Shown here piece by piece: positions 3,878-54,248 of a DNA stretch of 64,000 nt. Below the pieces are notes generated by a model. It was not told the DNA's origin, made no database searches, and was given only the letters and a program-made list of their open reading frames with translations. Numbering within the stretch: position 1 is the stretch's first letter; each line of letters opens with the position of its first letter. This stretch comes from a virus. The translations under genes were made by a program, and so were the position numbers. The stretch lies in the IMG/VR virus record IMGVR_UViG_3300042563_002443; one strand, given 5' to 3'.

Positions 3878-4098
3878 TGATACAACCAGCATCAAAAGAT
3901 TGGATACAACAAACCTTTGTAAGGGAGTTTGGAAACAAGCTCCTGGCTACGGACTTTTACTATAATGAAGACGGATATCGTGTAATGACTGAATCATATC
4001 ATGTACGACGCGGATCATGTTGTGGTAATGGTTGTTTGCATTGTCCATACACGCCAAAACATGAGACCAATAATACCAAGTTGAATAATATTTATTAA
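3877..4098 (+). CDS. small Cys-rich protein (DUF5522-like)
   Basis: RGSCCGNGCLHCPY motif; translationally coupled to nrdJ. Confidence 0.7.
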   Translation: MIQPASKDWIQQTFVREFGNKLLATDFYYNEDGYRVMTESYHVRRGSCCGNGCLHCPYTPKHETNNTKLNNIY

Positions 4099-4099
4099 T

Positions 4100-4780
4100 A
4101 TGATTAAACTAAAAAATTTATTATTAGAAGTACATATTGATAACAAATTCCAACGTGAATTAATTGATAGGATAAATGATGAGTATAGGGAAGATTACAA
4201 ATCATTAACACCACAAGAAATTAACGATGGTTATTGTGATATGTGGGCTTCATTGTTTGTGGATCGTTTTGGCGGAGATCATCAATGGTCTTTTGATTTT
4301 CCAAATGATCCAAATGGACATTCGTGGGTAAAATTAAATAATAAATTTTATGATGCTGAAATGACTACGGGTACAACAAAATTAATAAATTTGCCGCATT
4401 TTCAACGAGCTATAAAAAAATATGGCACTGATTGGTTAGATACTAAATTCTTTAATAATATTCAAAAAACAAAATATGATGCATCAAATATCAATAAAAT
4501 TGAGGAAATAGGACCTCAAAATTTTATTGAGATGTATTTGGATTGGCTAGAAGAGTTATTAAATGATTTAGAAGATTCTAATGATATTGAAGCCATTAAA
4601 CGGTACGATACAGTATTAAATGCTAGGTTTGCATTAGAAGATGCTGATTCTACGGAAATTATACAATATCTACAACGAAAATATGGCAATGATGTCGATC
4701 AGATAATATTAAAAATAATCGGCGATACAACAAAATATGATGCATCAGGCATTGATACACCTGGCAATCCTAACATGTAA
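4100..4780 (+). CDS. late protein with MIKLKNLLLE leader (putative internal virion protein)
   Basis: ATATTTAT motif at 4088-4095; shared leader; internal TKYDAS repeat. Confidence 0.6.
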   Translation: MIKLKNLLLEVHIDNKFQRELIDRINDEYREDYKSLTPQEINDGYCDMWASLFVDRFGGDHQWSFDFPNDPNGHSWVKLNNKFYDAEMTTGTTKLINLPHFQRAIKKYGTDWLDTKFFNNIQKTKYDASNINKIEEIGPQNFIEMYLDWLEELLNDLEDSNDIEAIKRYDTVLNARFALEDADSTEIIQYLQRKYGNDVDQIILKIIGDTTKYDASGIDTPGNPNM

Positions 4781-7767: not shown

Positions 7768-8067
7768 ATGAATTGGAAACCAATTGGAGATCAAGTACTC
7801 CTAAAACAACTAGAAAAACAAGACAAAACAAAGAGTGGTATCATTATAATGAACTCATTGGATGATTATATTGAATGTGATGTTATGGCCGCAGGAGACG
7901 GGTTATTTACGCAAACAGGTACAAAAATACCAATGACTGTTAAAGTTGGAGATCGCATAAAAATCTATTCCGGAAATTTAGGAGCACAAAAGAAAGTGCA
8001 AGTAGAAAATAACGATTTTATTTTGGTTCGAGAACATGAAATTGCTATGATAAATACAAAACCATGA
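7768..8067 (+). CDS. groES: co-chaperonin GroES
   Basis: KPIGDQVLL, KTKSGII, PMTVKVGD. Confidence 0.88.
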   Translation: MNWKPIGDQVLLKQLEKQDKTKSGIIIMNSLDDYIECDVMAAGDGLFTQTGTKIPMTVKVGDRIKIYSGNLGAQKKVQVENNDFILVREHEIAMINTKP

Positions 8068-8300: not shown

Positions 8301-8776
8301 CACACCGAGTAAAACGGTTAGCAAAAGAAATTTCAAAAGATCATATACAAAGCGGTAACACGTTGCCACCAATAATGATTTGCATATTAAATGGTTCTAT
8401 ACATTTCTTTTCAGATTTAATTAGGGCAATGAAAATTGATTGTGAAATTGATTTCATTCGATTAAAATCGTACAAAGGACAAGATAATTCAGGCGGTATA
8501 CAAGTCCTTAAAGGATTGGAATTAGAATTAAAAGGTCGTCGAGCATATATTGTTGATGACATTTGCGATTCTGGCAGCACACTATTAGAAGCACTGTTTA
8601 TGTGCAATAGTAAATTAGTACAAGAAGTTAGAGTTGTTACATTGTTGAAACGCAAAGATGGTGTCGATATGACTGATTTTTGCGGATTTACTATCGACAA
8701 AGAATGGGTTGTGGGCTATGGGCTTGACAATAATGGAACACAACGAGAATTACCACACATATATAAATTAAATTAA
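8270..8776 (+). CDS. hpt: hypoxanthine/guanine phosphoribosyltransferase
   Basis: ILNGS..FFSDL, KSY, PRPP loop IVDDICDSGSTL, WVVGYGLD. Confidence 0.9.
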   Translation: MEKLISQEKIAHRVKRLAKEISKDHIQSGNTLPPIMICILNGSIHFFSDLIRAMKIDCEIDFIRLKSYKGQDNSGGIQVLKGLELELKGRRAYIVDDICDSGSTLLEALFMCNSKLVQEVRVVTLLKRKDGVDMTDFCGFTIDKEWVVGYGLDNNGTQRELPHIYKLN

Positions 8777-11295
8777 TGTATAAAGCAATCGGTTATGATA
8801 AAAAAGCGGGCATCATGCACGTTTGGGATGATGAATTAGGACATCGCAAATTTCCTTTTCAGGCATATGGATATTTACCAAATCCAAATGGAACATATCA
8901 AGCACTTGACGGAACACGATTGAATCAAGTACCTGGCAATCATCGAGATAATCCTAAATCATATGAATCTGACTTAAATGAAGAAGTTAGAACATTGATT
9001 GATTTATATTATGAATCAGATGAGCCGTCTAAAGGACATAAAGATTTCTTTTTTGATATTGAAACTGCAAAAGATGAAAATGGCTTCAGCACAATACAAG
9101 ATGTTCGCACCGCAATTACTTCGATTGCATATTATGATAAAGCAGGAAAAGATCGAAGAGTATTGATCTTAGACGAACAAGGTCGCATCAAAGAACGTGA
9201 AATACAAGGCGAAGGATATGCAATAGAAATATTCCGCAATGAAAAAGATCTATTAACTAGATTTATCAACATATTTGCACAAATACAACCAACAGTTATA
9301 ACCGGGTGGAATACAGACGGATATGATGTTCCTTATTTGTTAGGCCGATGCAAAAAAGTATTGGGTGCACAAGCAATCAAGAAATTTTCTCCTGCCGGCA
9401 TAGTAGAACAAGGCAGAACCGGTAAATGGAAGATACTTGGAGTTTCTAGTTTAGATTACATTAAATTGTATAAAAACTTTACATATACCGAACTACCTAA
9501 TTATCGATTAGACACAGTTGCTAAAAAAGAATTGGATCGAGGTAAAGTTGAATATGATGGAGACTTGGATACATTGTTTACCCAAGATATTCATAAATTT
9601 GCATATTATAATATGACGGATGTTGATCTTGTTTATGAAATGGATGAAAAGCTTCAACTTTTAAATTTAGCAAGATCGATTTGTCACAAAGGGCATGTTC
9701 CATATGAAGATGTATATTATGCATCCAAATATTTGGATGGTGCTGCCATTGTTGATTTAAAACGCAATGGATTTGTTGCACCGAACAAGCAATTTAGATT
9801 TATTGAAGAAGAAACAATGGCAGATGCATTAGCTGGTGCATATGTAATGGCACCTGTACCTGGCCTGTATAAATGGATATATGACTTAGATTTAACTTCA
9901 TTGTATCCAAGCATCATTATGACTGCAAATATATCTCCAGAAACTAAAGTAGGAGTTGTAGAAAATTGGAATCAAGAATGCATGTTAAACTCAGATTCAA
10001 TGCCGGCTACAATAACATTGGCTTCTGGTAAAACACAACAAGTTGATAATGTTAAAACATGGTTGGCACAACACAATTATAGTATTGCTAGCAACGGCGC
10101 TACATATAACAATGAACAACGAGGGTTTCTTCCAACTATTCTAGAAAAATGGTTTAATGAACGTGTTATCTTTAAAGATAAGCGTGACACATTTAAATTT
10201 GGTACAGAAGAATATAAATTTTATGATGCATTGCAATTAACACAAAAAGTATTGCTTAATTCATTTTATGGAGTTTTAGGACTTAAAACATTTCGTTTCT
10301 ATGATTTAGATAATGCCGGAGCTATTACAGCAGTAGGTCAAAGTGTAATAAAATTTTCAGCTAAGGTTATTAATAACTATTACAAAAAAGAATTGGGAGT
10401 TGACCACTTTATTAATGATAGCGGAGACAAAGCAGAATTTGCATTTTACACTGATACGGATTCAACCTTTTGTAGCAGTTTGCCATTAATTGAACACCGA
10501 TTTCCTGGATGTGACACTAACGATGAAACATTCATGATTGAACAAACTAATGCAATTGCATCTGAAATACAAACAACGGTTAATACAATGTATGACCAAT
10601 ATGCAAAAGTATTCCATAATACAACCGCACATCGATTCCAAATTAAACAAGAATATATTGCAAAATCCGGTTTATGGATTGCCAAAAAAAGATATGCCCA
10701 ATGGGTTATATTCAAAGAAGGCAAATCTACGGATAAATTGGATGTAAAAGGATTAGATGTTGTTAGATCCAGTTTCCCGGAAGATTTCAAAAAGATAATG
10801 AAAGAAACATTGTGGTATATCCTTAAAGGAAGAAACAAGCAAGATACTTCAACATTGATACATAACTTTAAAAATAACATTAAAAGTTCCAAAGTATTGA
10901 ATGTAATGAAGAATTCAAGTGTTAAAGAATTATCTAAATATATCAAAAAACGTAAACCGTTTACCGGTTATATAAAAGGATCGACAGCACACGTAAAAGC
11001 CGCAATTAATTTTAATGATTTATTGAGTACATTAACTACGGATATATTACCTATATCAGACGGCGAAAAAGTAAAGTGGGGCTATTTAGTAGGCAATCCG
11101 TACGGGTTTGAAACTATTGCATTACGAGGTTATTTAGATCCACCCGAAATAGTTGCATTTGCAGAACAATACATTGATCACAATAAAATGTTCACGGCAG
11201 ACCTAAGCAACAAATTCAATGATTTCTATGCAGCAATGAGTTGGGGTGCATTACCAGAAAATAACAATGCAAAAAAGTTTTTTAACTTTGGATAA
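8776..11295 (+). CDS. family B DNA polymerase
   Basis: Exo FDIET/GWNTDGYD; pol DLTSLYPS, KVLLNSFYG, YTDTDS, KKRY; no intein-sized insert. Confidence 0.96.
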   Translation: MYKAIGYDKKAGIMHVWDDELGHRKFPFQAYGYLPNPNGTYQALDGTRLNQVPGNHRDNPKSYESDLNEEVRTLIDLYYESDEPSKGHKDFFFDIETAKDENGFSTIQDVRTAITSIAYYDKAGKDRRVLILDEQGRIKEREIQGEGYAIEIFRNEKDLLTRFINIFAQIQPTVITGWNTDGYDVPYLLGRCKKVLGAQAIKKFSPAGIVEQGRTGKWKILGVSSLDYIKLYKNFTYTELPNYRLDTVAKKELDRGKVEYDGDLDTLFTQDIHKFAYYNMTDVDLVYEMDEKLQLLNLARSICHKGHVPYEDVYYASKYLDGAAIVDLKRNGFVAPNKQFRFIEEETMADALAGAYVMAPVPGLYKWIYDLDLTSLYPSIIMTANISPETKVGVVENWNQECMLNSDSMPATITLASGKTQQVDNVKTWLAQHNYSIASNGATYNNEQRGFLPTILEKWFNERVIFKDKRDTFKFGTEEYKFYDALQLTQKVLLNSFYGVLGLKTFRFYDLDNAGAITAVGQSVIKFSAKVINNYYKKELGVDHFINDSGDKAEFAFYTDTDSTFCSSLPLIEHRFPGCDTNDETFMIEQTNAIASEIQTTVNTMYDQYAKVFHNTTAHRFQIKQEYIAKSGLWIAKKRYAQWVIFKEGKSTDKLDVKGLDVVRSSFPEDFKKIMKETLWYILKGRNKQDTSTLIHNFKNNIKSSKVLNVMKNSSVKELSKYIKKRKPFTGYIKGSTAHVKAAINFNDLLSTLTTDILPISDGEKVKWGYLVGNPYGFETIALRGYLDPPEIVAFAEQYIDHNKMFTADLSNKFNDFYAAMSWGALPENNNAKKFFNFG

Positions 11296-11343
11296 CAAAT
11301 TGTTTTTTTTTTGTGTTATATTTATATGTAAATAAGGAAAATT

Positions 11344-11634
11344 ATGATAAAATTAAAAACCGTACTTGCAGAAAATATGCGCCGATTTGGTACGAAAAAC
11401 TTAAACGAAGGAATGTTCAGTAATTTTTTACAAAGTATATTAGGAAAAACTGATGCGATGGTTGATTTTCTTACTATTTTAGAATTTGCAAGAAAAGATA
11501 AAGACGGAGAAAACGCCGATGAAGCGGTTCAGTATTTAATGGATAAACATAATGTATCTGCAGATGAAGCGTTAAAAACTGTTACCCATGTTTATGAAAA
11601 ATTTGGTCCATGGATCGAATTAACTAGAAAATAA
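11344..11634 (+). CDS. late cassette protein with LAENMRRFGTKNLNE leader (copy 1)
   Basis: ATATTTAT at 11318; 43-bp leader identical to 18337-18379. Confidence 0.75.
   Translation: MIKLKTVLAENMRRFGTKNLNEGMFSNFLQSILGKTDAMVDFLTILEFARKDKDGENADEAVQYLMDKHNVSADEALKTVTHVYEKFGPWIELTRK
11368..11410 (+). repeat. 43-bp perfect direct repeat, copy 1 (copy 2 at 18337-18379)
   Basis: GCAGAAAATATGCGCCGATTTGGTACGAAAAACTTAAACGAAG. Confidence 0.95.
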
Positions 11635-11677
11635 ATAATTATTTATATGTAAGATAAAGAACCAAAATGACAAATTA

Positions 11678-11707
11678 AAGTACTAGCAGCAATGTTAGTA
11701 CTTTTTT
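11678..11707 (+). terminator. intrinsic terminator
   Basis: AAGTACTAGCA-GCAA-TGTTAGTACTT, 11-bp stem with GNRA loop, then T tract. Confidence 0.85.
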
Positions 11708-11720
11708 ACTGTTATAAAGG

Positions 11721-11749
11721 TTGGATAATATAAATACATTTATTATAAT
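11721..11749 (+). promoter_or_regulatory. TTGGAT-N17-TATAAT promoter of the dpdA operon
   Basis: Exact 17-nt spacer; ATG 5 nt downstream. Confidence 0.7.
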
Positions 11750-11754
11750 ATAGT

Positions 11755-12186
11755 ATGATTGGTTATAAAACACATTGGTACGGCAAAGAAATAGAAGGCC
11801 GTTACACTGATATCGAAACATTGTTTATTGCAGACATTAAAGCACTAGACAGAATTGTAGCAGGAAAAAATCCACACGTTTATTTTTGTTCCGGTGCAAC
11901 CGCCCAATTGATCGACGATGATCGATGGGCTACGGTATTCAGAATGATTTCTGATACTAGTTTCATAACAATCGAAGTTACTCCCGGTATGTTAGAAAAG
12001 ATACCACCAATGATTCGAATTCGCGCACACATCTTGTTAATGTTAAATTGTACTGATGCCGCATTGTTAAAACAATCAGACAGCATTAAGGTTGTATATG
12101 CAGATTATTCTTTGTATTGTACAACGGTACATAATATGCAACATGTTGTCCCAGATATGTATAAATTTGATAGAGATAAACAATGA
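11755..12186 (+). CDS. hypothetical protein heading the dpdA operon
   Basis: WYGKEIEG...ETLF...HVYF; overlapping operon with the next four genes. Confidence 0.7.
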   Translation: MIGYKTHWYGKEIEGRYTDIETLFIADIKALDRIVAGKNPHVYFCSGATAQLIDDDRWATVFRMISDTSFITIEVTPGMLEKIPPMIRIRAHILLMLNCTDAALLKQSDSIKVVYADYSLYCTTVHNMQHVVPDMYKFDRDKQ

Positions 12187-12584
12187 TAAGAGGAGTTATA
12201 GCAGGAAACTTTGATGTAATACATCCAGGATACATTGCCATGTTTGATGAATGCAAAAAGCACTGCGATAGATTAATAGTGTGTCTACATGAAGATCCAT
12301 CCGTTGAACGACCAGAAAAACTTAAACCAATATTACATTGGAGCGACCGAGTAAAGATACTTGATTCACTTAGGCAAGTTGATTTTGTATTTCCATATCA
12401 AACAGAAGCTGATCTATATGAAGCTCTAGTTAAAGGAGACTTTGATGTTAGGTTCTTAGGCGATGATTATGTAGGAAAAACTTATACCGGTTATGAATTA
12501 AACATTCCTATAAAATACCTAAACAGAGACCATGGATGGTCAACAACTAAATACAAACAATTAATAGCAGATTCATTAAAATGA
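12183..12584 (+). CDS. cytidylyltransferase (TagD / HIGH-family)
   Basis: GNFDVIHPGY, GDDY, RDHGWSTT. Confidence 0.85.
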   Translation: MIRGVIAGNFDVIHPGYIAMFDECKKHCDRLIVCLHEDPSVERPEKLKPILHWSDRVKILDSLRQVDFVFPYQTEADLYEALVKGDFDVRFLGDDYVGKTYTGYELNIPIKYLNRDHGWSTTKYKQLIADSLK

Positions 12585-12931
12585 AATACAGCGTAGTAGT
12601 AACATTTAACATTGAAGGATTTCATAATTGGCCTGATGCAAAAGAAATATTTCCACAAGTAGCATTCTTATCGGATAGACATAGACATATGTTTGGATTC
12701 CGTTGTTATGCAAACGTAACACATACTGATCGCGATGAGGAATTTATATTGTTAAACAGAAAAATACAAAAAGGATTGCGAATTGGATTTTCTGGATCTG
12801 AAACAAATGTATTAGAATTTGGATCAATGTCGTGTGAAATGATTGGAGAATGGTTGTTAGAATCATTTCCAACGTTGTATAAAGTAGAAGTTTGGGAAGA
12901 TTGGGAGAATGGAGCAATAATTGAAAGATAA
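12581..12931 (+). CDS. QueD-paralogue T-fold protein, DpdL-like (putative CDG decarboxylase)
   Basis: EGFHNWP, LSDRHRHMF (LxxxHRHxF), SCEM, EVWEDWENGA. Confidence 0.65.
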   Translation: MKYSVVVTFNIEGFHNWPDAKEIFPQVAFLSDRHRHMFGFRCYANVTHTDRDEEFILLNRKIQKGLRIGFSGSETNVLEFGSMSCEMIGEWLLESFPTLYKVEVWEDWENGAIIER

Positions 12932-12932
12932 T

Positions 12933-13970
12933 ATGAAAATATTTTTAGTAGACTTAGAATCAATACCGACACGATATACTTGCGAGTGGAAGACACATGT
13001 TCCACAATTATTGCGTGATAATGGATTTGATGTTCAAGTTATAGAAGGAGATCATACAATTCCAGAATCAACAACACCTGGTGCATTTTTGAACTTTGGT
13101 GGTACTAACATGTACAAAGCAACACAGCTTCACAAGTTGTCTGAATTATTTACATTAGGTAAGATTACCGCAGGAGACCATATCATTTTTACAGATGCAT
13201 GGCACCCAGCTATTATCAATGTAAAATATATGAGTGAACTTCTAAATATTCCGGTTGTAATGCACGGACTTTGGCACGCGGGTTCATATGACCCGAATGA
13301 TTTTTTAGGTCGGCTCGTAGGAGATAAACCATGGATTAGGCACGCTGAACAAGCCTTTATTGGAGCACTAGATCATAATTGGATTGCAACCGCAGCACAT
13401 TTTCAAATGATATGTAAAACATATGATGTATTTTTAAATTCAACGTTTGATCAAACAGGCTGGCCAATGGAATATACCCATAATATGATTACGCCTAAAC
13501 CATTTAATGAAAAAGAAAATATTATTGTTTTCCCGCACCGAATAGCACCTGAAAAACGATTAGATTTGTTTCAAGAATTAGCATCGCAGCCAGAATTAGC
13601 ACATTATCAATTTATTGTAGCAATGGATCTAAATTTGACTAAAACACAATATCATGAACTTCTTCAAAGAGCAAAGTTTGCAGTATCATTTGCAGATCAA
13701 GAAACATTGGGAATTTCAATGTATGAATCAGCTTGTGCAGGAGCATGTACAATTGTTCCTAATAGATTATCATATATGGAAATGTATCATCCTATGTTTA
13801 AACATGCAGATTCAGTAAATGAGGCTGTGGCTGCAATATTAAAATATGAACAACAAGACTTAACAAATGATATTGCTAAATTAACAAATTATTTACATGA
13901 CCGATTTTTTTCAGCAACAAGATTAATTAATTTACTAAAAGAATATAAAAACAATGAAAGAACAAGATAA
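12933..13970 (+). CDS. GT-B glycosyltransferase in the dpdA operon
   Basis: FPHRIAPEK, QETLGISMYE (GT4-like E-x7-E), PNRLSYMEM. Confidence 0.8.
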   Translation: MKIFLVDLESIPTRYTCEWKTHVPQLLRDNGFDVQVIEGDHTIPESTTPGAFLNFGGTNMYKATQLHKLSELFTLGKITAGDHIIFTDAWHPAIINVKYMSELLNIPVVMHGLWHAGSYDPNDFLGRLVGDKPWIRHAEQAFIGALDHNWIATAAHFQMICKTYDVFLNSTFDQTGWPMEYTHNMITPKPFNEKENIIVFPHRIAPEKRLDLFQELASQPELAHYQFIVAMDLNLTKTQYHELLQRAKFAVSFADQETLGISMYESACAGACTIVPNRLSYMEMYHPMFKHADSVNEAVAAILKYEQQDLTNDIAKLTNYLHDRFFSATRLINLLKEYKNNERTR

Positions 13971-15216
13971 GCGGTTCATATATTTTCCGTCGTTGTCTGC
14001 AGGCTCAATGGTCTCGGCATTCAAGAAAGATATGAAATTTGAAAATGGAGACCCGGTAAAGTTCTTCGACTCAAGATATCCAGATAAGTGGAGGCACCCA
14101 TATTTTCTAATCACAGCAGGACACCATTACAAGAAAATGGATTTCCGAGACACGATGGGCTTAGAAAAAGATGTTCTAGTATTTGGAGATTCAGGAGGAT
14201 ACCAAATAGCAACAGGAGCATTACCATATAGCAACGAATTGCGCGAAAAAATATTTCATTGGTTAGAAGCTAATAGTGATGTAGCAGCAAACTTAGATAT
14301 TCCACCTAAAACAAAATATCGAAATAAATTTGCAGAATGTGCTGACATTAGTTATGACAATTTTGCTTATTTTGAAAAACATCAAAGCGGTAAGACAAAA
14401 TACCTTAACATGTTGCAAGGCTCTAACACTGATGAATATACTTGGTGGTATCATAAATTTAAACATTTTGATTTTCAAGGTTGGGCAATTGGAGGTCCAC
14501 AAAAATTAGTAGACTTTATGTTTGCGGTTGCATTGATGCTCAAAGAAAAAACATTTGAAAATCCTAGACTAGAATATTTGCACTTATTGGGTATTAGCAA
14601 AATATCCGACTTTTTTATTCTAGCAACATTGCAAAAATTAATGAATAAAAATTATGGCAATAGAATCTATGTAACAACGGATTCATCATCGCCAGGACAA
14701 TATCCGGTATTTGGAACATATCTTCATTCAGCAAATTATAAAACACAAACCTTTTCGGAATTGTATTTTCCTAAAAATGCTGAATATAGAAGACAAGCTC
14801 ATATTCGTCAAGGAAAAATTGGAGAAGTATCTATTGATCTATCACAACATGTACCATGTGCATTACATTGTCCAGCATGCACCGACTTTACATATGATTT
14901 GCTAGGAGGAAAAACAGATGCTGGATTAGATCGATATTCACAAGAAGCTATGCCTAGAATGGTTGTTCACAATGTGCATTTATATGTGCAATGTGCAGAA
15001 GAAATCAATCAACTAGTAGACAGCCATGTAGAATTGCTAGAAACAGTAATACCAAGAGACTTGTATGATGTTATCTTGTCACTGCATGAAATGTTTGCCG
15101 ATCCTGACGCAGCATTACAAACATATGAAAAATATATTAAAACATATAAAAAGTTTGGTGGAAGTAGTATATCAACCACCGATGCCGAAAATTTCAATAA
15201 ATACTTTACATTTTAA
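13954..15216 (+). CDS. dpdA: DpdA-like DNA guanine transglycosylase (TGT fold)
   Basis: DSGGYQ, NLDIPP, LQG, GWAIGG, HLLG, TDSSSP, Zn site CALHCPAC...HN. Confidence 0.8.
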   Translation: MKEQDKRFIYFPSLSAGSMVSAFKKDMKFENGDPVKFFDSRYPDKWRHPYFLITAGHHYKKMDFRDTMGLEKDVLVFGDSGGYQIATGALPYSNELREKIFHWLEANSDVAANLDIPPKTKYRNKFAECADISYDNFAYFEKHQSGKTKYLNMLQGSNTDEYTWWYHKFKHFDFQGWAIGGPQKLVDFMFAVALMLKEKTFENPRLEYLHLLGISKISDFFILATLQKLMNKNYGNRIYVTTDSSSPGQYPVFGTYLHSANYKTQTFSELYFPKNAEYRRQAHIRQGKIGEVSIDLSQHVPCALHCPACTDFTYDLLGGKTDAGLDRYSQEAMPRMVVHNVHLYVQCAEEINQLVDSHVELLETVIPRDLYDVILSLHEMFADPDAALQTYEKYIKTYKKFGGSSISTTDAENFNKYFTF

Positions 15217-15230
15217 AAACAAATAAAACA

Positions 15231-15941
15231 ATGGAAAAAAGCAAATTACAATCATTTATTAATCGTTATTATTTAGCAGGAAATTGCGAGGCAGTTATCC
15301 TTAAAGAAAACGAAACAGGTGTCGGCTGTGAATTAATCGACATGGATCAAACCGTAGTTGGAAAGATTCAATGGAATACAACTCCTTTCATGAAAGGCAT
15401 GTTAGGTATCAATCATACAGGTGCATTAACTAAGATGTTAAGTGCATTAGGTGAAAAAATTGAAATTGAAGTTAAAGATGCAGCCGGCAAGAATTATGCA
15501 ATGTGTATTTCGGAAGGAAGCACCCGCGCAACATTCATGTTAGCAGATACAACGGTTATTCCAGCAGTTCCAAGCATTAATGCAGAACCAGAATATGTTG
15601 TACAAGTTGCCGTTAATGATGACTTTATTAACAAATTCATTAAAGCAAAAAATGCATTACCAGACGCAAAGAATTTTGCAGTACAAGTTAAATCAGGAGT
15701 TGTTAAATTTATTATCAATTATACAACAGTTAATTCCGATAACATTACTTTTGAAGTAGGAACAACAACGGCTGACGATATGGAGCCTGTATGCTTTTCG
15801 GCAGACAAATTAAAAGAAGTATTAGTTGCAAATAAAGGCGACGTAGGACAATTGCATGTTTCTCCCGATGGATTATCTCGAATAGATTTTGTTGGAACTG
15901 ATTTTGAATCTAGCTATTGGTTAGTAATGTTACAAAATTAA
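15231..15941 (+). CDS. sliding clamp (gp45/PCNA-like)
   Basis: 236 aa two-domain beta-rich protein upstream of the clamp loader. Confidence 0.65.
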   Translation: MEKSKLQSFINRYYLAGNCEAVILKENETGVGCELIDMDQTVVGKIQWNTTPFMKGMLGINHTGALTKMLSALGEKIEIEVKDAAGKNYAMCISEGSTRATFMLADTTVIPAVPSINAEPEYVVQVAVNDDFINKFIKAKNALPDAKNFAVQVKSGVVKFIINYTTVNSDNITFEVGTTTADDMEPVCFSADKLKEVLVANKGDVGQLHVSPDGLSRIDFVGTDFESSYWLVMLQN

Positions 15942-15942
15942 T

Positions 15943-16368
15943 ATGCAGATAGATATAGTAAATAAATCACCCAATGCGCTACCGGCATATGAAACTCCTA
16001 GTAGCGCAGGAATGGATGTTCGTTGTGTGGATAAACTTACAGTAAACCCAGGCGAACGAATATTAGCAAAAACGGGACTTTATGTAGAAATTCCAATTGG
16101 ATATGAAATACAAGTAAGACCTAGAAGCGGATTAGCATTAAAACAAGGAATAACTGTATTGAATACTCCCGGCACTATTGATGCTGACTACCGAGGAGAA
16201 ATAGGAGTAATATTAATAAATCATAGTTCAACTGTTGTTGAGTTTATGCCAGGAGACAGAATTGCACAAATTGTATTGAATAAAATTGAAATAATACAAT
16301 GGAACCAATCCAATTCATTAACTGGAACAAAACGTGGCACTGGAGGATTTGGATCAACAGGAAAATAA
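15943..16368 (+). CDS. dut: dUTPase
   Basis: AGMD, RPRSGLA, GTIDADYRGE, RIAQ, RGTGGFGSTG. Confidence 0.97.
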   Translation: MQIDIVNKSPNALPAYETPSSAGMDVRCVDKLTVNPGERILAKTGLYVEIPIGYEIQVRPRSGLALKQGITVLNTPGTIDADYRGEIGVILINHSSTVVEFMPGDRIAQIVLNKIEIIQWNQSNSLTGTKRGTGGFGSTGK

Positions 16369-16371
16369 CAT

Positions 16372-17298
16372 ATGTACGGACAACAAGAAAATACACTTTG
16401 GACAGAATCATTCCGTCCTAACACATTAGAAGGATATATCGGTAATGAACATATCATCGAAAAAGTTAAAATATTTATTGCCAATGGTGATGTGCCGCAT
16501 CTATTATTTTACGGCTCGGCAGGAACCGGTAAAACTACATTGGCAAAGATTATTGCAAATAGCGTCGATGCTGATCTAATGTATATTAATGCATCAGATG
16601 AAAACTCAGTTGATGCAGTTAGAGATAAAATTAAACGTTATGCATCAACAGTAGGATTTAAACGTTGGAAAATCATTATTCTAGATGAAGCAGATTATTT
16701 GACACCAAATGCCCAAGCAGCTCTTCGTAACTTGATGGAAACATATAGCAAAACAACACGTTTCATTTTAACATGCAATTATGTTGAAAAGATTATCGAT
16801 CCAATTCAATCACGTTGTCAAACATTTGCTATTATGCCTCCCAACAAAACAGATGTAGCAAAGCGACTAGTATCAGTATTAGAAGAAAAACAAGTGCAGT
16901 ATGACATCAAAGATATTGCAGCAATCATTAATGCATCATATCCAGATATTCGTAGAGCAATTAATACAGCTCAAAGTTGTGTAATTGAAAATCGATTAAC
17001 ATTGGATAAGGCAAGTGCAATACAAGCAAATTACATGACCGAAGTACTTGAAATGCTTAAGAATGCTAAAGACAAAAAAGTTGCATTCACTAACATTAGA
17101 CAATGCATTGCTGATAGCAAAGTTAGAGACTTTACTCCAATGTATACTTTCTTGTATGATAATTTGGATGAATTTGCTCACGGCCACATTGCTCCATGCA
17201 TTTTGATTATTGCAGAATCGCAATTTAAAGATGCTAGCGTGGTTGATAAAGAAATTAATATAATGGCAATGTTTGTAAACATACTAGGAGAAATTTAA
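16372..17298 (+). CDS. clamp loader ATPase subunit (RFC small / gp44-like)
   Basis: WTESFRP, GSAGTGKTT, NASD, LDEAD, QSRC. Confidence 0.93.
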   Translation: MYGQQENTLWTESFRPNTLEGYIGNEHIIEKVKIFIANGDVPHLLFYGSAGTGKTTLAKIIANSVDADLMYINASDENSVDAVRDKIKRYASTVGFKRWKIIILDEADYLTPNAQAALRNLMETYSKTTRFILTCNYVEKIIDPIQSRCQTFAIMPPNKTDVAKRLVSVLEEKQVQYDIKDIAAIINASYPDIRRAINTAQSCVIENRLTLDKASAIQANYMTEVLEMLKNAKDKKVAFTNIRQCIADSKVRDFTPMYTFLYDNLDEFAHGHIAPCILIIAESQFKDASVVDKEINIMAMFVNILGEI

Positions 17299-17302
17299 AA
17301 TA

Positions 17303-17518
17303 ATGTCGATATCGTATCACAAAAGCATGGTAACTGTTATATTTAAAACATCTAATAGAGCTAATGCTAAAACAAAAATAAAAACGTTTCGCAACAAATC
17401 AATTGATGATATTTTATCGGCTAAACGAATAATAGGAATTCCAGAGACTTCAATTATTTTGGAATTAGGAATCGGCAAAGAATTAGAATATCAATACAGA
17501 AAACGATATAAATTATAA
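17303..17518 (+). CDS. hypothetical protein
   Basis: Basic ORF inside the clamp-loader operon. Confidence 0.6.
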   Translation: MSISYHKSMVTVIFKTSNRANAKTKIKTFRNKSIDDILSAKRIIGIPETSIILELGIGKELEYQYRKRYKL

Positions 17519-17991
17519 TGGCAAAGCAAAAAGTTATTAAATCAGCTAATACTATTAAAGCGGCAACATTGTTTGATTTTATTGATGGTGTTACTCATAA
17601 AAAGAAAGAATGGTCTGCCTGGACTGATATGGATCAAAAAGCATTTAGTCCATTCATGACAAATCGATTCTTATCAATGCGTATGGAGCTTACGGAACTT
17701 ATTAATGAGTTTCAAACATATACAATTGGATTATTACGGCCACAAGAAACTTATCGATTGTATTATGATTTATTGCCTACTAACAAAACATATGCAAAAT
17801 ACATAAAAGGCAAATCCGAAGATAAATTCGATAAAGCATTAGTTGCTCAAATTGCAGAACATTATCAAATTAGTTTGTATGAAGCTGCAGATTACGTGGA
17901 ATTAATGGATACGGCTGAATGTGAACGAATCTTAACGTTATATGGATATAGTGATGGCGACAAGAAAAAATTATTAAAAGGAATCAAATGA
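17518..17991 (+). CDS. clamp loader subunit (T4 gp62-like)
   Basis: LFDFI, FSPFMTNRFLS, AEHYQIS..EAADY pattern; position. Confidence 0.7.
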   Translation: MAKQKVIKSANTIKAATLFDFIDGVTHKKKEWSAWTDMDQKAFSPFMTNRFLSMRMELTELINEFQTYTIGLLRPQETYRLYYDLLPTNKTYAKYIKGKSEDKFDKALVAQIAEHYQISLYEAADYVELMDTAECERILTLYGYSDGDKKKLLKGIK

Positions 17992-18257
17992 GCAATATAC
18001 ATACACAATCACATTACAGAGGTAAAGACAGCCTTTATAAATTTGCTGAAGAGTGGGCATTAAACGCCTATGAATTTGATATCATTAAACGTGTTGTAAG
18101 ATGTCGACACAAAGGTTCCTTTACGGAAGACTTAACAAAGACTCAAGACTTAATTGACATTTATCTACAAGAGCAACAACATAAATATATCAAGGTAACG
18201 CCAGATTACCTAGAGCTCGATGATCCATTTATTTCTACAGATGTAATGCCGTTATAG
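17988..18257 (+). CDS. DUF3310-like protein
   Basis: SHY...IIK...R..HKG...EDL.K pattern. Confidence 0.65.
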   Translation: MSNIHTQSHYRGKDSLYKFAEEWALNAYEFDIIKRVVRCRHKGSFTEDLTKTQDLIDIYLQEQQHKYIKVTPDYLELDDPFISTDVMPL

Positions 18258-18285
18258 GTTTGAATATGCAATAAAATTTTATATA
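18252..18285 (+). repeat. 34-bp perfect direct repeat, left copy (duplicated promoter; right copy 18809-18842)
   Basis: TTATAGGTTTGAATATGCAATAAAATTTTATATA flanks gene 18319-18741. Confidence 0.95.
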
Positions 18286-18318
18286 CTATATTTATATAAA
18301 AATTTAAAGGATAGTATT

Positions 18319-18741
18319 ATGAAAAAAAACATCTTAGCAGAAAATATGCGCCGATTTGGTACGAAAAACTTAAACGAAGATGAAGATCAAAATAACAATG
18401 GATACCCAGATGATTCCGAATCAGTCCTTAAAGGCGGAACTGGAATTGATGGTATTAAACGATCCACCGGGAATAAAGTAAAACAATTTATTAAACTAAT
18501 AGGTAAAGATTCTGTAGATTGGTTTGATAACTTAGATGTTAATTATCTCCCATCACAATATGCGTCAGCATTAAAAAAATTAGGAATTAATCAACATACT
18601 GCATTAGTAGCACCATATGAGCTTCGAGGTAATGATATTAGCGATATTATCAATGCAGCAAATCAATCTAATATACGCTATATTGAAATTTTAGACAGAG
18701 CCGGAGGCGGGCGACTAATTATATTTACATCAAGACAATAA
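18319..18741 (+). CDS. late cassette protein with LAENMRRFGTKNLNE leader (copy 2)
   Basis: ATATTTAT at 18288; shared 43-bp leader; C-terminus unrelated to copy 1. Confidence 0.75.
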   Translation: MKKNILAENMRRFGTKNLNEDEDQNNNGYPDDSESVLKGGTGIDGIKRSTGNKVKQFIKLIGKDSVDWFDNLDVNYLPSQYASALKKLGINQHTALVAPYELRGNDISDIINAANQSNIRYIEILDRAGGGRLIIFTSRQ

Positions 18742-18774
18742 GTTAAAATTAATACTTTTTAAAACTAAGATACG

Positions 18775-18802
18775 GTGCAATCATTAACGGTTGCACTTTT
18801 TT
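18775..18802 (+). terminator. intrinsic terminator
   Basis: GTGCAATC-ATTAAC-GGTTGCAC then T6; followed by the same ACTGTT as the 11678 terminator. Confidence 0.75.
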
Positions 18803-18808
18803 ACTGTT

Positions 18809-18842
18809 TTATAGGTTTGAATATGCAATAAAATTTTATATA
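18809..18842 (+). repeat. 34-bp direct repeat, right copy; overlaps a TTTGAA-N17-TATATT promoter
   Basis: Identical to 18252-18285. Confidence 0.95.
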
Positions 18843-18857
18843 TTATATAAAAAAGTT

Positions 18858-19424
18858 ATGGCAAATCATGTTTATACTCAATTAGACATTGAATTTATAA
18901 ATCAGCAAGATACAGCAAAATTTTCGGAATGGATTGGACATACTCCTACTATTGAAAATACAACGTTTGGTGCACGCATTGAAGCATGTTGCAATATCAT
19001 GTTAGATAATTTATATCCAGACAAACAAGATACCAATGCATACTACATTGAAAATTTAGGTGCTAAATGGATTTATTTTGATGATGTAGATCAGTCTGAA
19101 ACTACTATGCATATTTCATGGACAACTGCATGGGACTTCCCAGAAAAATTATTTTGGAAATTATCTGATTTTCTTCGTATTGAATACCCAGGTGCAAAAA
19201 TACAAGGAACATTTGAAGATGAAGGATTTGGCTTTGTAGGTGCATGTGCATCAAATCAACAATCACGCAATATTGAATATTTTAATCCAGATGAAGAATT
19301 TTTTGAAGGCTCCGAATATAAAGATGAGGATGATTGTTTTACTGATGAATTCTATAATGATATAATTAGCAAAAAACAAGAATTGTTAGATACATGTATT
19401 AACAATATTATTCCAACCATATGA
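18858..19424 (+). CDS. DUF1281/YubB ferredoxin-like-domain protein
   Basis: MANHV...GAKW...WTTAWDFP...FEDEG. Confidence 0.6.
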   Translation: MANHVYTQLDIEFINQQDTAKFSEWIGHTPTIENTTFGARIEACCNIMLDNLYPDKQDTNAYYIENLGAKWIYFDDVDQSETTMHISWTTAWDFPEKLFWKLSDFLRIEYPGAKIQGTFEDEGFGFVGACASNQQSRNIEYFNPDEEFFEGSEYKDEDDCFTDEFYNDIISKKQELLDTCINNIIPTI

Positions 19425-20377
19425 AATCCGGAAATTATTTAGCTCCTATATATCGTTTATCAATACGAGATGCAGCAACCGTACCTAGAAAGATATCATA
19501 TTCTCAATGGTCCATGTATGAACGATGTCCCCTATCCTGGAAGTTGGCATACATTGATGGACTAGCCCCATTCCAAGCATCAATTGATACATGTTTTGGA
19601 ACTGCCTTTCACGAAACATTTCAACACTTTCTAACGGTATTGTATACAGATTCAGTTAAGAAAGCAGAAAACATAAATTTTCAAGAAGTATTGACAAATA
19701 AACTTCGCGAAGAATATGCTCGATGTGTTGCAGAGTCAGGAGGAGTTCATTTTTCAACTGCCTTGCAAATGGCAGAATATTTAGAAGATGGCGTTGCCAT
19801 TTTTGATTGGTTTGCAAAAAGACGTTCACAATATTTTTCTAGCAAAAATTATGAATTAGTAGCAATTGAAATGGAACTATGTACTCCAGCATCAAAAGCA
19901 AATCCATCTGTATTTTGGTATGGGTTTATTGATGTTGTTATTAGACACGTTCCTACCGGCAACATTGAAATATATGATATAAAAACATCCCGACAAGGTT
20001 GGAACAAATATCAAAAAGCAGACAATTTAAAAGCAGCACAGCTAATTGCATATAAAAATTACTTTGCACAACAATTTGGTACGCCTATAGAAAAAATTGA
20101 TGTTGAATTCTTTATTGTGAAACGAAAGATGATTGAAGAATCAATGTTTCCACAAAAGCGAGTGCAAAACTTTAAACCTGCATCAGGAACAGTAACACAA
20201 CGCAAAGTACAAAAACAAATTGATGCATTTGTTGAATCATGTTTTGATTTGGACGGAAATCGCAATGCCGAAAAAAAATATATGGCAATATCAGGTAAAG
20301 GCGATAAAAATTGCAAGTATTGTGCATTCAAAACAGATTATGAAAATTGTCCTAAAGATGCTAGGATTCGTGAATAA
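19421..20377 (+). CDS. PD-(D/E)XK nuclease (RecB/Cas4-like)
   Basis: ISYSQ, CP, GTAFHE, GFIDV, DIKTS, QLIAY, CKYC...CP. Confidence 0.88.
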   Translation: MKSGNYLAPIYRLSIRDAATVPRKISYSQWSMYERCPLSWKLAYIDGLAPFQASIDTCFGTAFHETFQHFLTVLYTDSVKKAENINFQEVLTNKLREEYARCVAESGGVHFSTALQMAEYLEDGVAIFDWFAKRRSQYFSSKNYELVAIEMELCTPASKANPSVFWYGFIDVVIRHVPTGNIEIYDIKTSRQGWNKYQKADNLKAAQLIAYKNYFAQQFGTPIEKIDVEFFIVKRKMIEESMFPQKRVQNFKPASGTVTQRKVQKQIDAFVESCFDLDGNRNAEKKYMAISGKGDKNCKYCAFKTDYENCPKDARIRE

Positions 20378-44255: not shown

Positions 44256-44882
44256 ATGAATATAGAAAATACAACATTTAATCCAAATCCATATTGGAAT
44301 ATAAAATTAGAAAATGTTGATATTTTAAATGATACACATTGTACCAATTTATTTGATCAAAATGGATATCATTTAACTACAATCGAACAACAATATGCAG
44401 ATATCAACGGTTATCCAAAAAACGTGCGGCGACATGAAACTGTAATACGACAACCATGGATTGTATGGGATAAGTTTGACGGCGCACACATCAATCATTC
44501 GGACTTATTCGAACGAAAAGCATATACTGATTCTGCCTTAGAACAATTAACGCAGTATGCATCATCTAATCCTATGTTATATAAAATTATCAAAATGAAA
44601 CCCAAATGGGGCATTGATATTTCTATAGATTATGTATCTAAAAATTCAGTATTTGAAGTATTTCATTATGAATGGGATTCATTTGATTATGAATTAATAC
44701 ATGAAAAGAAATTAGAAATTGAAAATTTTGTAATAAATAATGATTGGGATGATGTTGCAAAACGATTATGGCAATTAAAAGATGACTGGTTTTATTTAGA
44801 TTTCTTTGAACAAACAAAATGGAGAACTAATTACTTTGGACTATCTCCAGAAAAATTTAAAAATGTTATTTGGAACAATTGA
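44256..44882 (+). CDS. hypothetical protein
   Basis: FDQNGY, HINHS, KWGIDISIDY. Confidence 0.7.
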   Translation: MNIENTTFNPNPYWNIKLENVDILNDTHCTNLFDQNGYHLTTIEQQYADINGYPKNVRRHETVIRQPWIVWDKFDGAHINHSDLFERKAYTDSALEQLTQYASSNPMLYKIIKMKPKWGIDISIDYVSKNSVFEVFHYEWDSFDYELIHEKKLEIENFVINNDWDDVAKRLWQLKDDWFYLDFFEQTKWRTNYFGLSPEKFKNVIWNN

Positions 44883-44893
44883 TATTTATTAAT

Positions 44894-45226
44894 ATGAAAC
44901 TATATAATTTATTATTTGAATCCAAACAAACTAACGATAAGTTTGAGGAATTTGCAGAGACTCGAGGCAAAGGCGCTGCTAAGATAGCTACAACTGCTGA
45001 AGAAAAAGGCGGTCTGGCGCTATTAACATGGCATCACTTTAAAGTGAAAGCTGCATATTATCGCCGAGCTACTGCAGGTAAATTTGATATTAATTCTGCA
45101 AAAAAAGAATTCGCTGAAACACTTAAAAAGATTTCATTGGGTATGACAGCAATTGAATTTCAACGTGAAGTGGGTCGATTGGAAGTATTAGGCGAATTAA
45201 TTATACGTGATCAAAAAGGCAAATAA
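44894..45226 (+). CDS. late protein with MKLYNLLFE leader
   Basis: GATATTTATTAATATG start context. Confidence 0.7.
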   Translation: MKLYNLLFESKQTNDKFEEFAETRGKGAAKIATTAEEKGGLALLTWHHFKVKAAYYRRATAGKFDINSAKKEFAETLKKISLGMTAIEFQREVGRLEVLGELIIRDQKGK

Positions 45227-46023
45227 TGATTCGCTTAAAACATTTATTAACTGAAACTACTATTGACACAGCAATTTATTGGGCAAAAACATTTCAGGCT
45301 GATTTAGGATTAACACCTGAAGCAGCATCAGCTATGGCTGCTAACATACAACATGAAAGTGAATTCCTCCCACATAGAATTCAGGGTTCGGGAGTTAAAA
45401 CAGGAACATTGTCTGACTCTGGAGATTTAGGATATAGTTGGGCACAATGGACATATCCTGCTAGAAAACAAGCATACCGCGATCATGTTTTAAACAAATT
45501 TAAAGTAGACATAAAAAAAAATCCGGCAACTAACATGCACGCATATTCATTTTTAAAAAATGAAATAAATAATCATCCTGGGTTTGATTTTGATGTATTT
45601 AAAAAATCAAAAGATATAAATGCTGCTACAGAAGATTTTGTAACTAATTATGAACAAGCAGGTAAGCCTATGTTAAAACAACGGCAAGCAATTGCTCGAG
45701 AAATTTTAAATAAAATAAAACCAAAATCAAAAAAACCTATCGACACATGGAAATCTACAGTACGTAGTGCAGTCAATATGGCTACCGATATAAATAAGTC
45801 AGTTACACATACAGTTAAATCAGGCGACACATTATCAGAATTAGCAGCAAAATATAAAATTACGGTTCAACAATTAAAACAAATCAACGGATTAACTTCA
45901 GACAACATAAAAATTGGTCAAAAACTGTATGTTCAATTAACTAAACCAACTCCCAATAAAAAATCTAATACAACGGTTCCTAAACAAACTATTAAAGATA
46001 CTCCATGGGACGATATGTTTTAA
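45226..46023 (+). CDS. phage-tail-lysozyme-like domain + LysM, with MIRLKHLLTE leader
   Basis: ANIQHES, GYSWAQWT..RK, F..NYEQ; LysM HTVKSGDTLSELA...N..IKIGQKL. Confidence 0.82.
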   Translation: MIRLKHLLTETTIDTAIYWAKTFQADLGLTPEAASAMAANIQHESEFLPHRIQGSGVKTGTLSDSGDLGYSWAQWTYPARKQAYRDHVLNKFKVDIKKNPATNMHAYSFLKNEINNHPGFDFDVFKKSKDINAATEDFVTNYEQAGKPMLKQRQAIAREILNKIKPKSKKPIDTWKSTVRSAVNMATDINKSVTHTVKSGDTLSELAAKYKITVQQLKQINGLTSDNIKIGQKLYVQLTKPTPNKKSNTTVPKQTIKDTPWDDMF

Positions 46024-47078: not shown

Positions 47079-47636
47079 ATGGGTGACGAACCACAATATA
47101 AGTATGTTTATGGACGTGGTAGATCGTCACTAGATTTACCTGAAACTGATATTCGATATGCTATGGCCAATACAAAGTCAAATGCAGAGGCATCACGTTT
47201 CTTAAAGGTATCATTTACTACATATAAAAAATATGCTAAGCTGTATATTGATAGAGAGACAGATAAAACTCTTTATGATATGCATACCAATCAAGCCGGG
47301 GTAGGTATTGCTAAAGATACAGTTAAAGCAACCGCCGGCGCATATAGTATAGATACAATTCTAGAAGGACATCATCCAAATTATCCAACATGGAAGATTC
47401 GTAACAGGCTATTGGCTTTAGGTATTATGAAAGAATGTTGTGATAGCTGCGGATATGAAGAACGACGAATAACAGATGATACGGTACCATTGCTTTTAGA
47501 TCATGTTGACGGAGATGAAACCAATCATCATATTGATAATTTGCAAATGCTTTGTCTCAATTGTTATTATCAGCAAACCGGAAATCCTTTCAACAAAGAC
47601 AAAGAAACTTGGTGGAACTATAATTTACTAGATTGA
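47079..47636 (+). CDS. HTH + HNH-type zinc-finger nuclease-domain protein
   Basis: SNAEASRFLKVSFTTYKKY; CDSCG...LDHVDGDETNH..NLQMLCLNC. Confidence 0.75.
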   Translation: MGDEPQYKYVYGRGRSSLDLPETDIRYAMANTKSNAEASRFLKVSFTTYKKYAKLYIDRETDKTLYDMHTNQAGVGIAKDTVKATAGAYSIDTILEGHHPNYPTWKIRNRLLALGIMKECCDSCGYEERRITDDTVPLLLDHVDGDETNHHIDNLQMLCLNCYYQQTGNPFNKDKETWWNYNLLD

Positions 47637-47647
47637 TATTTATTAAT

Positions 47648-48397
47648 ATGATATCAATGAAATCACTTATTATTGAAGGTCGTTATGATAGTTTAGTAAC
47701 TACATTATCAAACAAGCTATTACAAGTAATAAAAGACAGTTATGCTGCAACAACCGATCCAGATGGAAAATTTGCTGGAGAAAAAATATATTTTAAACGA
47801 GGCGAAACTTTAGCAGATATTAATGACGATGCCGAACAAGATAAAATATATTTTGAGGAAATTGAAAATGATACAATACCTGTAGAATTTTATTTATCAC
47901 TCAAAGTTCAATGGATTGAAGATCTACCTGATTTTAGCTCCGGAGGTGATATTTTTAATCAAACAACAAAACATGCAGATCAGCCGCCATTAATAGAAAT
48001 ACGATTTAAAATTAATCCTGCAGAATATCCTAGAATATTATCTGAAATTGCTATGCAACTAAGAGATACATTGCGTCACGAAATTGAACATGCTACTCAA
48101 AGTGGATGGAACATGATTGACAGCAAATTTATTTATTCTGATCAAGCAATGAGAACCAGGATTGAATCTGGTAATTTACCTGCTGCTCGCTATTTTACGT
48201 TGCCCAAAGAAATACCAGCAATGATTCAAGGCCTGTATTTTAAAGCAAAAAAATCAAAAACTCCCCTTAAGGATGTTGTTAATGACTATTTAGATATTTG
48301 GGTATCTGACAATACTATTACATTGCAAGACAAAGAATTTATATTAAAAACTTGGAGATCATATCTTCCAAAGCTAGGAATAAGACAGGAACTATAA
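47648..48397 (+). CDS. late protein with MISMKSLIIE leader and HExxH (zincin-like) motif
   Basis: LRHEIEHATQ, EIPA; GATATTTATTAATATG start context. Confidence 0.68.
   Translation: MISMKSLIIEGRYDSLVTTLSNKLLQVIKDSYAATTDPDGKFAGEKIYFKRGETLADINDDAEQDKIYFEEIENDTIPVEFYLSLKVQWIEDLPDFSSGGDIFNQTTKHADQPPLIEIRFKINPAEYPRILSEIAMQLRDTLRHEIEHATQSGWNMIDSKFIYSDQAMRTRIESGNLPAARYFTLPKEIPAMIQGLYFKAKKSKTPLKDVVNDYLDIWVSDNTITLQDKEFILKTWRSYLPKLGIRQEL

Positions 48398-52616: not shown

Positions 52617-54247
<1,631 letters not shown>

Positions 54248-54248
<1 letters not shown>

Follow-up and report, generated by a model that had tools for sequence, protein, structure and literature searches.

Framed gene cassettes with a shared, putative capsid-targeting leader at core promoters of a T4-like phage lineage

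How do two small, unrelated genes in the replication module of one phage-like genome come to open with the same stretch of DNA, and what might that stretch do? The question is raised by 64,000 nucleotides (nt) of the IMG/VR record IMGVR_UViG_3300042563_002443, from an uncultured freshwater phage; the whole stretch is called the window here (G+C 32.8%). Its core genes stand in the order family B DNA polymerase (PolB), an operon starting at 11755, sliding clamp and clamp-loader subunits, a DUF3310-like gene, a gene for 188 amino acids (aa), and a PD-(D/E)XK nuclease. This row is broken by two small genes, one at 11344-11634 (96 aa; cassette 1, at site 1 behind PolB) and one at 18319-18741 (140 aa; cassette 2, at site 2). 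We propose that both are cargo of mobile cassettes with a regulatory frame, and that the leader peptide they share is a capsid-targeting propeptide; for these two layers taken jointly we estimate a probability of roughly 0.65. Loci and contigs of relatives in IMG/VR are given L- and G-numbers, respectively.

Two complete contigs, G001 (159.6 kb) and G002 (169.3 kb), showed gene-for-gene synteny with the window, and their PolB was 74% and 84% identical to that of the window, respectively. The T4 portal, prohead protease, and major capsid protein each have a distant homologue in both contigs, and on this basis the window's lineage is assigned to a distant T4-like myovirus group of lakes and sea. 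Among the isolate phages of INPHARED, 9 kb of the window had no DNA match, and neither cassette gene had a protein match above noise.

Two unrelated genes in a similar frame

The two genes share a perfect 43-bp block, of which no copy was expected by chance, and the similarity extends to 56 nt at 91%. BLASTP aligned the two proteins over 18 leader residues only. The sequence-only reading of this DNA, made before the present analysis, had called the block perfect and the genes otherwise unrelated; both statements held, and the possibility that the proteins are full-length paralogues was rejected, because they are similar in the leader only. The parts of cassette 1 are as follows.

11296-11343, + strand: constant 5' end of cassette 1, with a T-run, the late-type box ATATTTATAT (11318-11327), and a Shine-Dalgarno sequence
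11344-11634, + strand: cassette 1 gene, 96 aa, with leader codons at 11344-11409 followed by a 74-aa helical cargo
11368-11410, + strand: 43-bp perfect repeat, copy 1, within the leader; its last base is one past the final Glu codon of the leader
11640-11678, + strand: second late-type box and a three-codon mini open reading frame (ORF; 11667-11678) that runs into the terminator
11677-11713, + strand: terminator hairpin type A with the TTTTTTACTGTT tail
11721-11754, + strand: promoter-like site consisting of the right TTGGATAA as the -35 box, a spacer, and TATAAT (10/12 consensus match); it aligns with the empty sites

An 8-bp direct repeat, TTGGATAA, flanks cassette 1 (11288 and 11721); the PolB stop codon lies within its left copy (11288-11295), and the promoter-like site formed with its right copy precedes the deazaguanine/glycosyltransferase operon that starts at 11755. 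The late-type box, ATATTTAT, was found ahead of both cassette genes, with boxes at 11318, 11640, and 18288. The stretch 11640-11678 probably represents a remnant of the 5' end of a second cassette, and alleles with two cassettes at site 1 were present in L158 and L159. A structure model of the cassette 1 protein was a small helical bundle (predicted local distance difference test score, pLDDT, 68) with no significant fold match in the PDB. Cassette 2 is composed as follows.

18252-18291, + strand: duplicated promoter, left copy; empty alleles have one copy
18288-18318, + strand: late-type box and Shine-Dalgarno sequence of cassette 2
18319-18741, + strand: cassette 2 gene, 140 aa, with leader codons at 18319-18378, an acidic Asn-rich linker module, and cargo
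18337-18379, + strand: 43-bp perfect repeat, copy 2
18774-18808, + strand: terminator hairpin type B with the TTTTTTACTGTT tail
18809-18848, + strand: duplicated promoter, right copy, predicted to drive the 188-aa and PD-(D/E)XK genes

The promoter duplication spans 40 nt at 98% identity (18252-18291 vs 18809-18848, 557 bp apart). The cassette 2 protein gave an unusable structure model (pLDDT 39), and neither cassette protein had any Pfam or PHROG match. The acidic Asn-rich module (D-Q-N-N-N-G-Y-P-D type; 18379-18420) stands directly behind the leader in many unrelated cargos and also occurs internally in a 219-aa leader protein (L320:6571). A second recurring post-leader module is of the L-E-N-K-L-G-F-D-S-G type. 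Each of the two modules might act as a linker or provide an additional point of exchange.

Both cassettes end in a hairpin with a folding z-score of about -3.7 and the same 13-mer tail (11701 and 18796). In each, the hairpin and U-tract run into a -35-like box (11677-11749 and 18774-18848), whose activity is predicted from the sequence. The conserved 3' element comprises hairpin, tail, and -35 box, and is longer than the sequence-only reading had noted. Only two such terminator-promoter composites exist in the window, similar over about 29 nt; composites of the same form were also found in relatives, and the type A frame occurs at two sites in different genomes. A hairpin with TTTTTTACTG is the general terminator form of the lineage, and in G001 and G002 it also stands behind the gene for the major capsid protein. 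The tail alone is therefore no cassette marker, and a cassette-specific terminator tail was rejected. A scan for sigma-70-type consensus matches found 49, with 49.3 expected, which is no class-wide excess in this AT-rich DNA; what supports the promoter calls is accordingly their position and conservation rather than the scan.

The sequence-only reading was thus largely borne out with respect to anatomy. The terminators with their common 13-mer and the copies of TTGGATAA and of the late-type box (11318, 11640) around cassette 1 were all found, and the perfect 34-bp promoter duplication reported around cassette 2 is present within the longer one. As reported, no recombinase is adjacent: a domain scan of eight proteins from the cassettes and their surroundings gave neither a recombinase nor an endonuclease domain. 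Two claims were retained in part. The shared terminator end recurs, as hairpin, tail, and promoter, across different cargos, although its tail is generic to the lineage; the TTG-N17-TATA promoters behind both cassettes are backed by position and conservation but not by an excess of consensus matches.

Empty, filled, and refilled alleles

For site 2, 80 loci were collected via the PD-(D/E)XK gene, with the DUF3310-like gene as the left anchor. The five closest (L234-L238; PD-(D/E)XK protein 99.4-100% identical) had no cassette and one promoter copy, the interval being 606 bp vs 1163 bp in the window. In a BLASTN comparison of the window with L234, the flanks were 97.1-97.5% identical, exactly 557 bp were unaligned, and the aligned blocks overlapped by 40 bp in L234. 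More distant relatives were empty at site 2, had another gene with the same leader, or had unrelated content; at least six different leader cargos were found there (L247, L249, L259, L273/L281, L282, and L308/L310/L312/L313).

For site 1, 80 loci were collected via the PolB C-terminus, of which 72 could be scored. The site was empty in 63 of the 72, with a gap of 26-36 bp and the PolB stop overlapping the -35 box of the next operon. Among the closest relatives, L155 and L157 were empty (PolB C-terminus >99% identical), while at PolB identities of at least 98.8% L156 had different cargo behind the same leader in a 161-aa gene, L154 had a 401-aa gene with the short leader, and L158 and L159 had cassette pairs. 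All occupied site 1 alleles compared had the same 5' end (stop codon, T-run, late-type box) and the same 3' end (type A hairpin, tail, -35 box, promoter); the 5' end of cassette 1 type preceded different cargo in L154, L156, L158, and L167. In L151-L153, the cassette was flanked by a duplication of about 50 bp comprising the PolB 3' end and the late-type box. Homologues of the cassette 1 cargo (64-78% identical) were located at the same PolB-downstream site in the contigs fetched. L223 and L224 had an HNH-like 195-aa gene at this site, which indicates that site 1 also accepts inserts of homing-endonuclease type.

Frames and cargo were also found at other places. The type A hairpin with the same 5' end occurred at site 2 in L259, L273, and L308, and the type B hairpin of the window ended the cassette at site 2 in L282. 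Full-length homologues of the cassette 2 gene (76-93% identical) were located upstream of gp32, the homology beginning within the leader and ending some 12 nt beyond the stop codon. The cassette 2 cargo was 93% and 78% identical to that of the gp32-locus relatives and the core genes of those contigs were 83-92% identical, which places them in the same clade, with the gene at another position. The gp32 site of the window's own genome type is occupied by two other leader genes.

Both cassettes were also present in L314, L315, and L318, the listed independent assemblies that reach both sites. The two-cassette haplotype is therefore a real genotype, and an assembly chimera or artefact was rejected. 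Taken together, the relatives bear out what the sequence-only reading had expected: empty sites with a single promoter copy, and cargo swaps between conserved ends. The population alleles thus support a mobile unit with exchangeable cargo; the movement itself, by circles or recombination events, we infer from them.

A leader peptide conserved across unrelated proteins

A degenerate DNA pattern for ten leader residues matched more than 114 contigs of IMG/VR. The 81 unique leader ORFs had a common layout, namely a few residues, L-x-E, a nine-residue basic core, and (L/I)-x-E, followed by complete divergence. The second motif, which was absent from the pattern used to collect the ORFs, stood directly behind the core in 77 of the 81 and 2-7 residues later in the other four. 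Leu occupied P3 of the first site in 80 of them, and the middle residue of (L/I)xE and the residue behind its Glu were free to vary. Across 51 sequences, 11 leader positions were invariant. A leader profile of 34 positions (E <=0.001) was searched against 1.84 billion proteins and recovered 901 protein cluster representatives (clusters at 50% identity), the match almost always starting at residue 1-3. The leader-bearing proteins among the 150 best profile matches were 31-288 residues long. The leader motif was not found in the searchable literature library.

Among 87 leader ORFs, 67 distinct 30-mers encoded the leader. Such free variation of the codons indicates that selection acts on the peptide, and an RNA or DNA element as the role of the leader was rejected. 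Only 0.7% of between-contig pairs were identical over the ten core codons, and the window's codon set was unique among the 87 ORFs. The 43-bp identity between the two cassettes is thus exceptional, and it points to a recent conversion or exchange between them within this genome line. The exact 43-mer had no match in IMG/VR; further copies, which the sequence-only reading had proposed to look for, exist at the level of the peptide and not of the 43-mer.

Several variants of the leader were observed. Some proteins have it twice, at the N-terminus and at about residue 135-150 (L002/L025, L091; P0130, P0136, P0160); these look like two cassettes fused in one frame, which a protease might separate. 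A 506-aa protein in G002 (87353, + strand; L142:7353-8870), encoded on the strand opposite to most genes, opens with a leader variant; it had no Glu motif directly behind the variant and no Pfam match. Many other genes in the window, G001, and G002 open with a shorter leader of similar build. One short-leader gene in the window (4100-4780) is polymorphic, being 94% identical in L120, partially matched in G001, and absent from G002, L116, and L119. The 265-aa product of 45226-46023 in the window, which combines a phage tail lysozyme domain with LysM, begins with a short leader of the MIRLK..LL.E type and is a plausible candidate for a head-loaded or virion peptidoglycan hydrolase.

Resemblance to T4 capsid-targeting sequences

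The internal proteins (IPs) of T4 have in common only an N-terminal capsid-targeting sequence of about 10 residues, which docks them to the prohead core and is cut off by gp21 (PMC9026906, PMC3012670). In the T4 record, the leaders of IPII/IPIII, gp24, and Alt each end in (L/I/F)-x-E, and residues 1-10 of both window proteins have the same form. The two (L/I)xE motifs of the leader fit the T4 prohead-protease rule. Peptidase_S77, the gp21 family, was encoded in 9 of the 10 leader-bearing contigs of at least 43 kb, mostly fragments, G001 and G002 included. In both of these, the protease, scaffold-like, and capsid proteins had leader-type motifs at the N-terminus, at positions as in their T4 counterparts. 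Furthermore, a homologue of the cassette 1 cargo with a quite different N-terminus kept both Glu positions, and its cargo began right behind the second. From these features, the leader is most likely a capsid-targeting propeptide, and cleavage, packaging, injection, and late timing would be expected of the proteins that carry it.

The late-type box was located within 70 nt upstream of 69% of the leader ORFs vs 14% of background ORFs. It was strongly biased to the sense strand (53 vs 13 in G001, 50 vs 9 in G002), and in relatives it lay ahead of large genes in the virion-gene region, the portal gene among them.

The box also occurs, as ATATTTATTAAT, only 12 nt before ATG and without a Shine-Dalgarno sequence. 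This arrangement stands ahead of three short-leader genes in the window (4088-4100, 44882-44894, 47636-47648), and the same was seen in G001 and G002; it suggests that some late genes have leaderless mRNAs or very short 5' untranslated regions.

Proposed mechanism and its alternatives

We propose a cassette framed in front by a late-type box and a gene that opens with the leader, and behind by an intrinsic terminator whose U-tract enters the -35 box of the next operon; a T-run precedes the late-type box in cassette 1 and in the relatives' cassettes. The short conserved regulatory stretches, together with the leader codons, would serve as patches of homology. General recombination of the phage probably acts on these patches, in co-infection or between genome copies, with a RecA/UvsX-like protein, gp32, and a 5'-3' exonuclease, all of which are encoded nearby in the window's genome type. 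Cassettes would thereby be inserted at promoters, deleted, moved to other promoters, or refilled with new cargo, leaving direct repeats of the target promoter on either side as the footprint, and no dedicated recombinase would be needed. Fixed regulatory ends, promoter duplications, clean empty sites, and varied cargo form the pattern expected from recombination at short regulatory repeats. Docked to the prohead core by the leader, which the T4-type (S77) prohead protease would then remove, the cargo would in its mature form be enclosed in the head and delivered together with the DNA, as is the case for the T4 internal proteins.

Several points weigh against this model. (L/I)xE is a short motif. 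The leader has twice the length of the T4 capsid-targeting sequence, and its basic core, for which T4 offers no counterpart, could for this reason belong to the mature protein and have a function there. The window does not include the head module and protease of its own genome. A terminator tail was located within 160 nt in only 39% of the leader genes elsewhere, many of which are in operons, and the full frame is therefore not universal. At site 2, true transposition on the one hand and allelic exchange or unequal crossing-over on the other are equally likely; both promoter copies there are nearly identical to the target, so integration of a circle would require a donor that already had that promoter. 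In addition, each event may be either a gain or a loss.

The basic core also speaks for a different role of the leader on equally mobile cassettes: the mature protein would retain it as an N-terminal peptide with a function of its own, perhaps the binding of DNA, of a host factor, or of a phage chaperone, or that of a tag for stability or translation. It lies between two Glu residues and has no equivalent in T4 leaders, and 11 invariant positions in 51 sequences are beyond what a docking helix is known to need. A retained peptide, however, does not readily account for two (L/I)xE positions that survive even replacement of the leader, for cargo divergence that starts immediately behind the second Glu, or for the co-occurrence of the leader with the S77 protease and the late-type box; a role at the RNA level is ruled out by the codon variation. 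We regard retention as unlikely. The repeats themselves allow a reading without spread, in which the cassettes are ancestral and the empty sites reflect decay through repeated deletions between short direct repeats. Both cassettes do have such repeats (8 bp and 40 bp), between which recombination would delete them cleanly, and 11640-11678 may be a vestigial cassette start. Yet empty sites dominate the whole clade at PolB identities of 71-99.6%, occupied sites are sporadic and hold unrelated cargo, the cassette 2 gene is at another locus in relatives, and the same frame is found at two sites. Loss alone cannot give different cargo in one frame, and we consider this account very improbable.

Least probable, in our view, is movement driven by nearby homing endonucleases, whose double-strand breaks would co-convert the flanking cassettes. 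Such genes do come close, in the form of the HNH-like gene at site 1 in L223/L224 and of NUMOD3 and SegE-like genes that adjoin the cassette 2 homologue in L119; neither cassette of the window, however, contains or adjoins an endonuclease gene, and the breakpoints lie at promoter, terminator, and leader rather than in the neighbourhood of a cleavage site. Mobile framed cassettes with a capsid-targeting leader therefore remain our preferred explanation.

Relation to known systems

Recombination between promoter early stem-loop (PeSL) elements was shown experimentally for RB49/phi1, including excised mini-circles (Arbiol et al. 2010, PMC2839356), and the finding was extended to distant T4-like phages, with PST and nt-1 among the PeSL phages (Comeau et al. 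2014, PMC4122927). The former paper also notes PeSL-like elements at T-even internal-protein loci (PMC2839356, citing Repoila et al. 1994). Like the cassettes described here, PeSL cassettes consist of composite terminator and promoter elements between genes, with their own expression signals for each cassette, and lie on either side of small orphan genes in which close relatives differ by insertion, deletion, or replacement. Alleles of this type, empty, filled, and refilled, were found here at identities of at least 98.8% for PolB and 99.4% for the PD-(D/E)XK protein. Recombination at regulatory repeats without a dedicated recombinase is common to PeSLs and to our proposal. The present elements are not sequence-homologous to PeSLs, their 5' end is a late-type box with a coding leader instead of an early promoter, and their sites are located between core replication genes.

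The leader layer resembles the T-even IP loci (Repoila et al. 1994, as described in PMC2839356 and PMC3012670; Mullaney and Black 1996, as described in PMC9026906): unrelated small proteins have nothing in common but an N-terminal leader with a prohead-protease site at its end, and their genes vary strongly from one relative to the next and have promoter/stem-loop elements on their flanks. The IP cargo is thought to consist of injected counter-defence proteins. Unlike the leaders of T4 IPII/IPIII (about 10 residues), the leader found here has about 20 residues, two (L/I)xE motifs, and a conserved basic core; unlike the T-even IPs, with about 30 variants at two loci, it marks 901 clusters, and its cassettes are dispersed at several promoter sites.

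Morons of lambdoid phages are likewise single genes with their own promoter and terminator between core genes, but they are not defined by conserved flanks that mediate exchange, and they have no shared leader. Integron cassettes are similar in the fixed insertion point by a promoter and in the many interchangeable single-gene cassettes, and a circular intermediate is plausible. Unlike in integrons, each cassette here has its own promoter, recombination is presumably homologous, and the flanks are promoter duplications, not attC-like sites; attI/attC and an integrase are lacking, the eight proteins scanned in and around the cassettes having no recombinase domain. Both layers thus have described precedents, in PeSLs and the T-even IP loci, and the system is not of a new kind. 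New are the longer two-site leader with its basic core, the large uncharted cargo repertoire, the 5' end that joins late-type box and leader, and the clear population evidence.

Core genes around the cassettes and other observations

The core genes next to the two cassettes are as follows.

8776-11295, + strand: family B DNA polymerase (PolB), with Pfam DNA_pol_B and exonuclease domain
17988-18257, + strand: DUF3310-like gene (PHROG 25460), left anchor of site 2
18858-19424, + strand: 188-aa gene, predicted to be driven by the right copy of the duplicated promoter
19421-20377, + strand: PD-(D/E)XK nuclease gene, predicted to share the promoter of the 188-aa gene (18809-18848)

Elsewhere in the window, a Cpn10/GroES-like gene was located at 7768-8067 (Pfam match at the identical locus in L314), and a GroEL-like protein, called from its N-terminal sequence, is encoded behind a late-type box at 52635-54248. 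Inside the head module of the relatives, we observed a small basic protein resembling ribosomal protein bS21 (G001 86990-86754, G002 47620-47375).

Significance

Of all phage products, injected proteins are the first that the host defences encounter, and those of T4 include a restriction-enzyme inhibitor. To our knowledge, very few injected phage proteins are known, since they have no common fold. More tentatively than for the two window cassettes, with the odds slightly against it, we suggest that the leader may mark a very large, hitherto undescribed repertoire (at least 901 clusters at 50% identity) of head-loaded, injected proteins of freshwater and marine T4-like phages, spread by integron-like cassettes that lack an integrase and target promoters between core genes. 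The empty, filled, and refilled alleles provide an unusually clear natural record of accessory-gene shuffling at short regulatory repeats in T4-like phages, which, as far as we know, has been documented so far mainly in coliphage pairs. If the proposal is true, the easily searched leader would provide a sequence handle for hundreds of candidate injected or counter-defence proteins from metagenomes.

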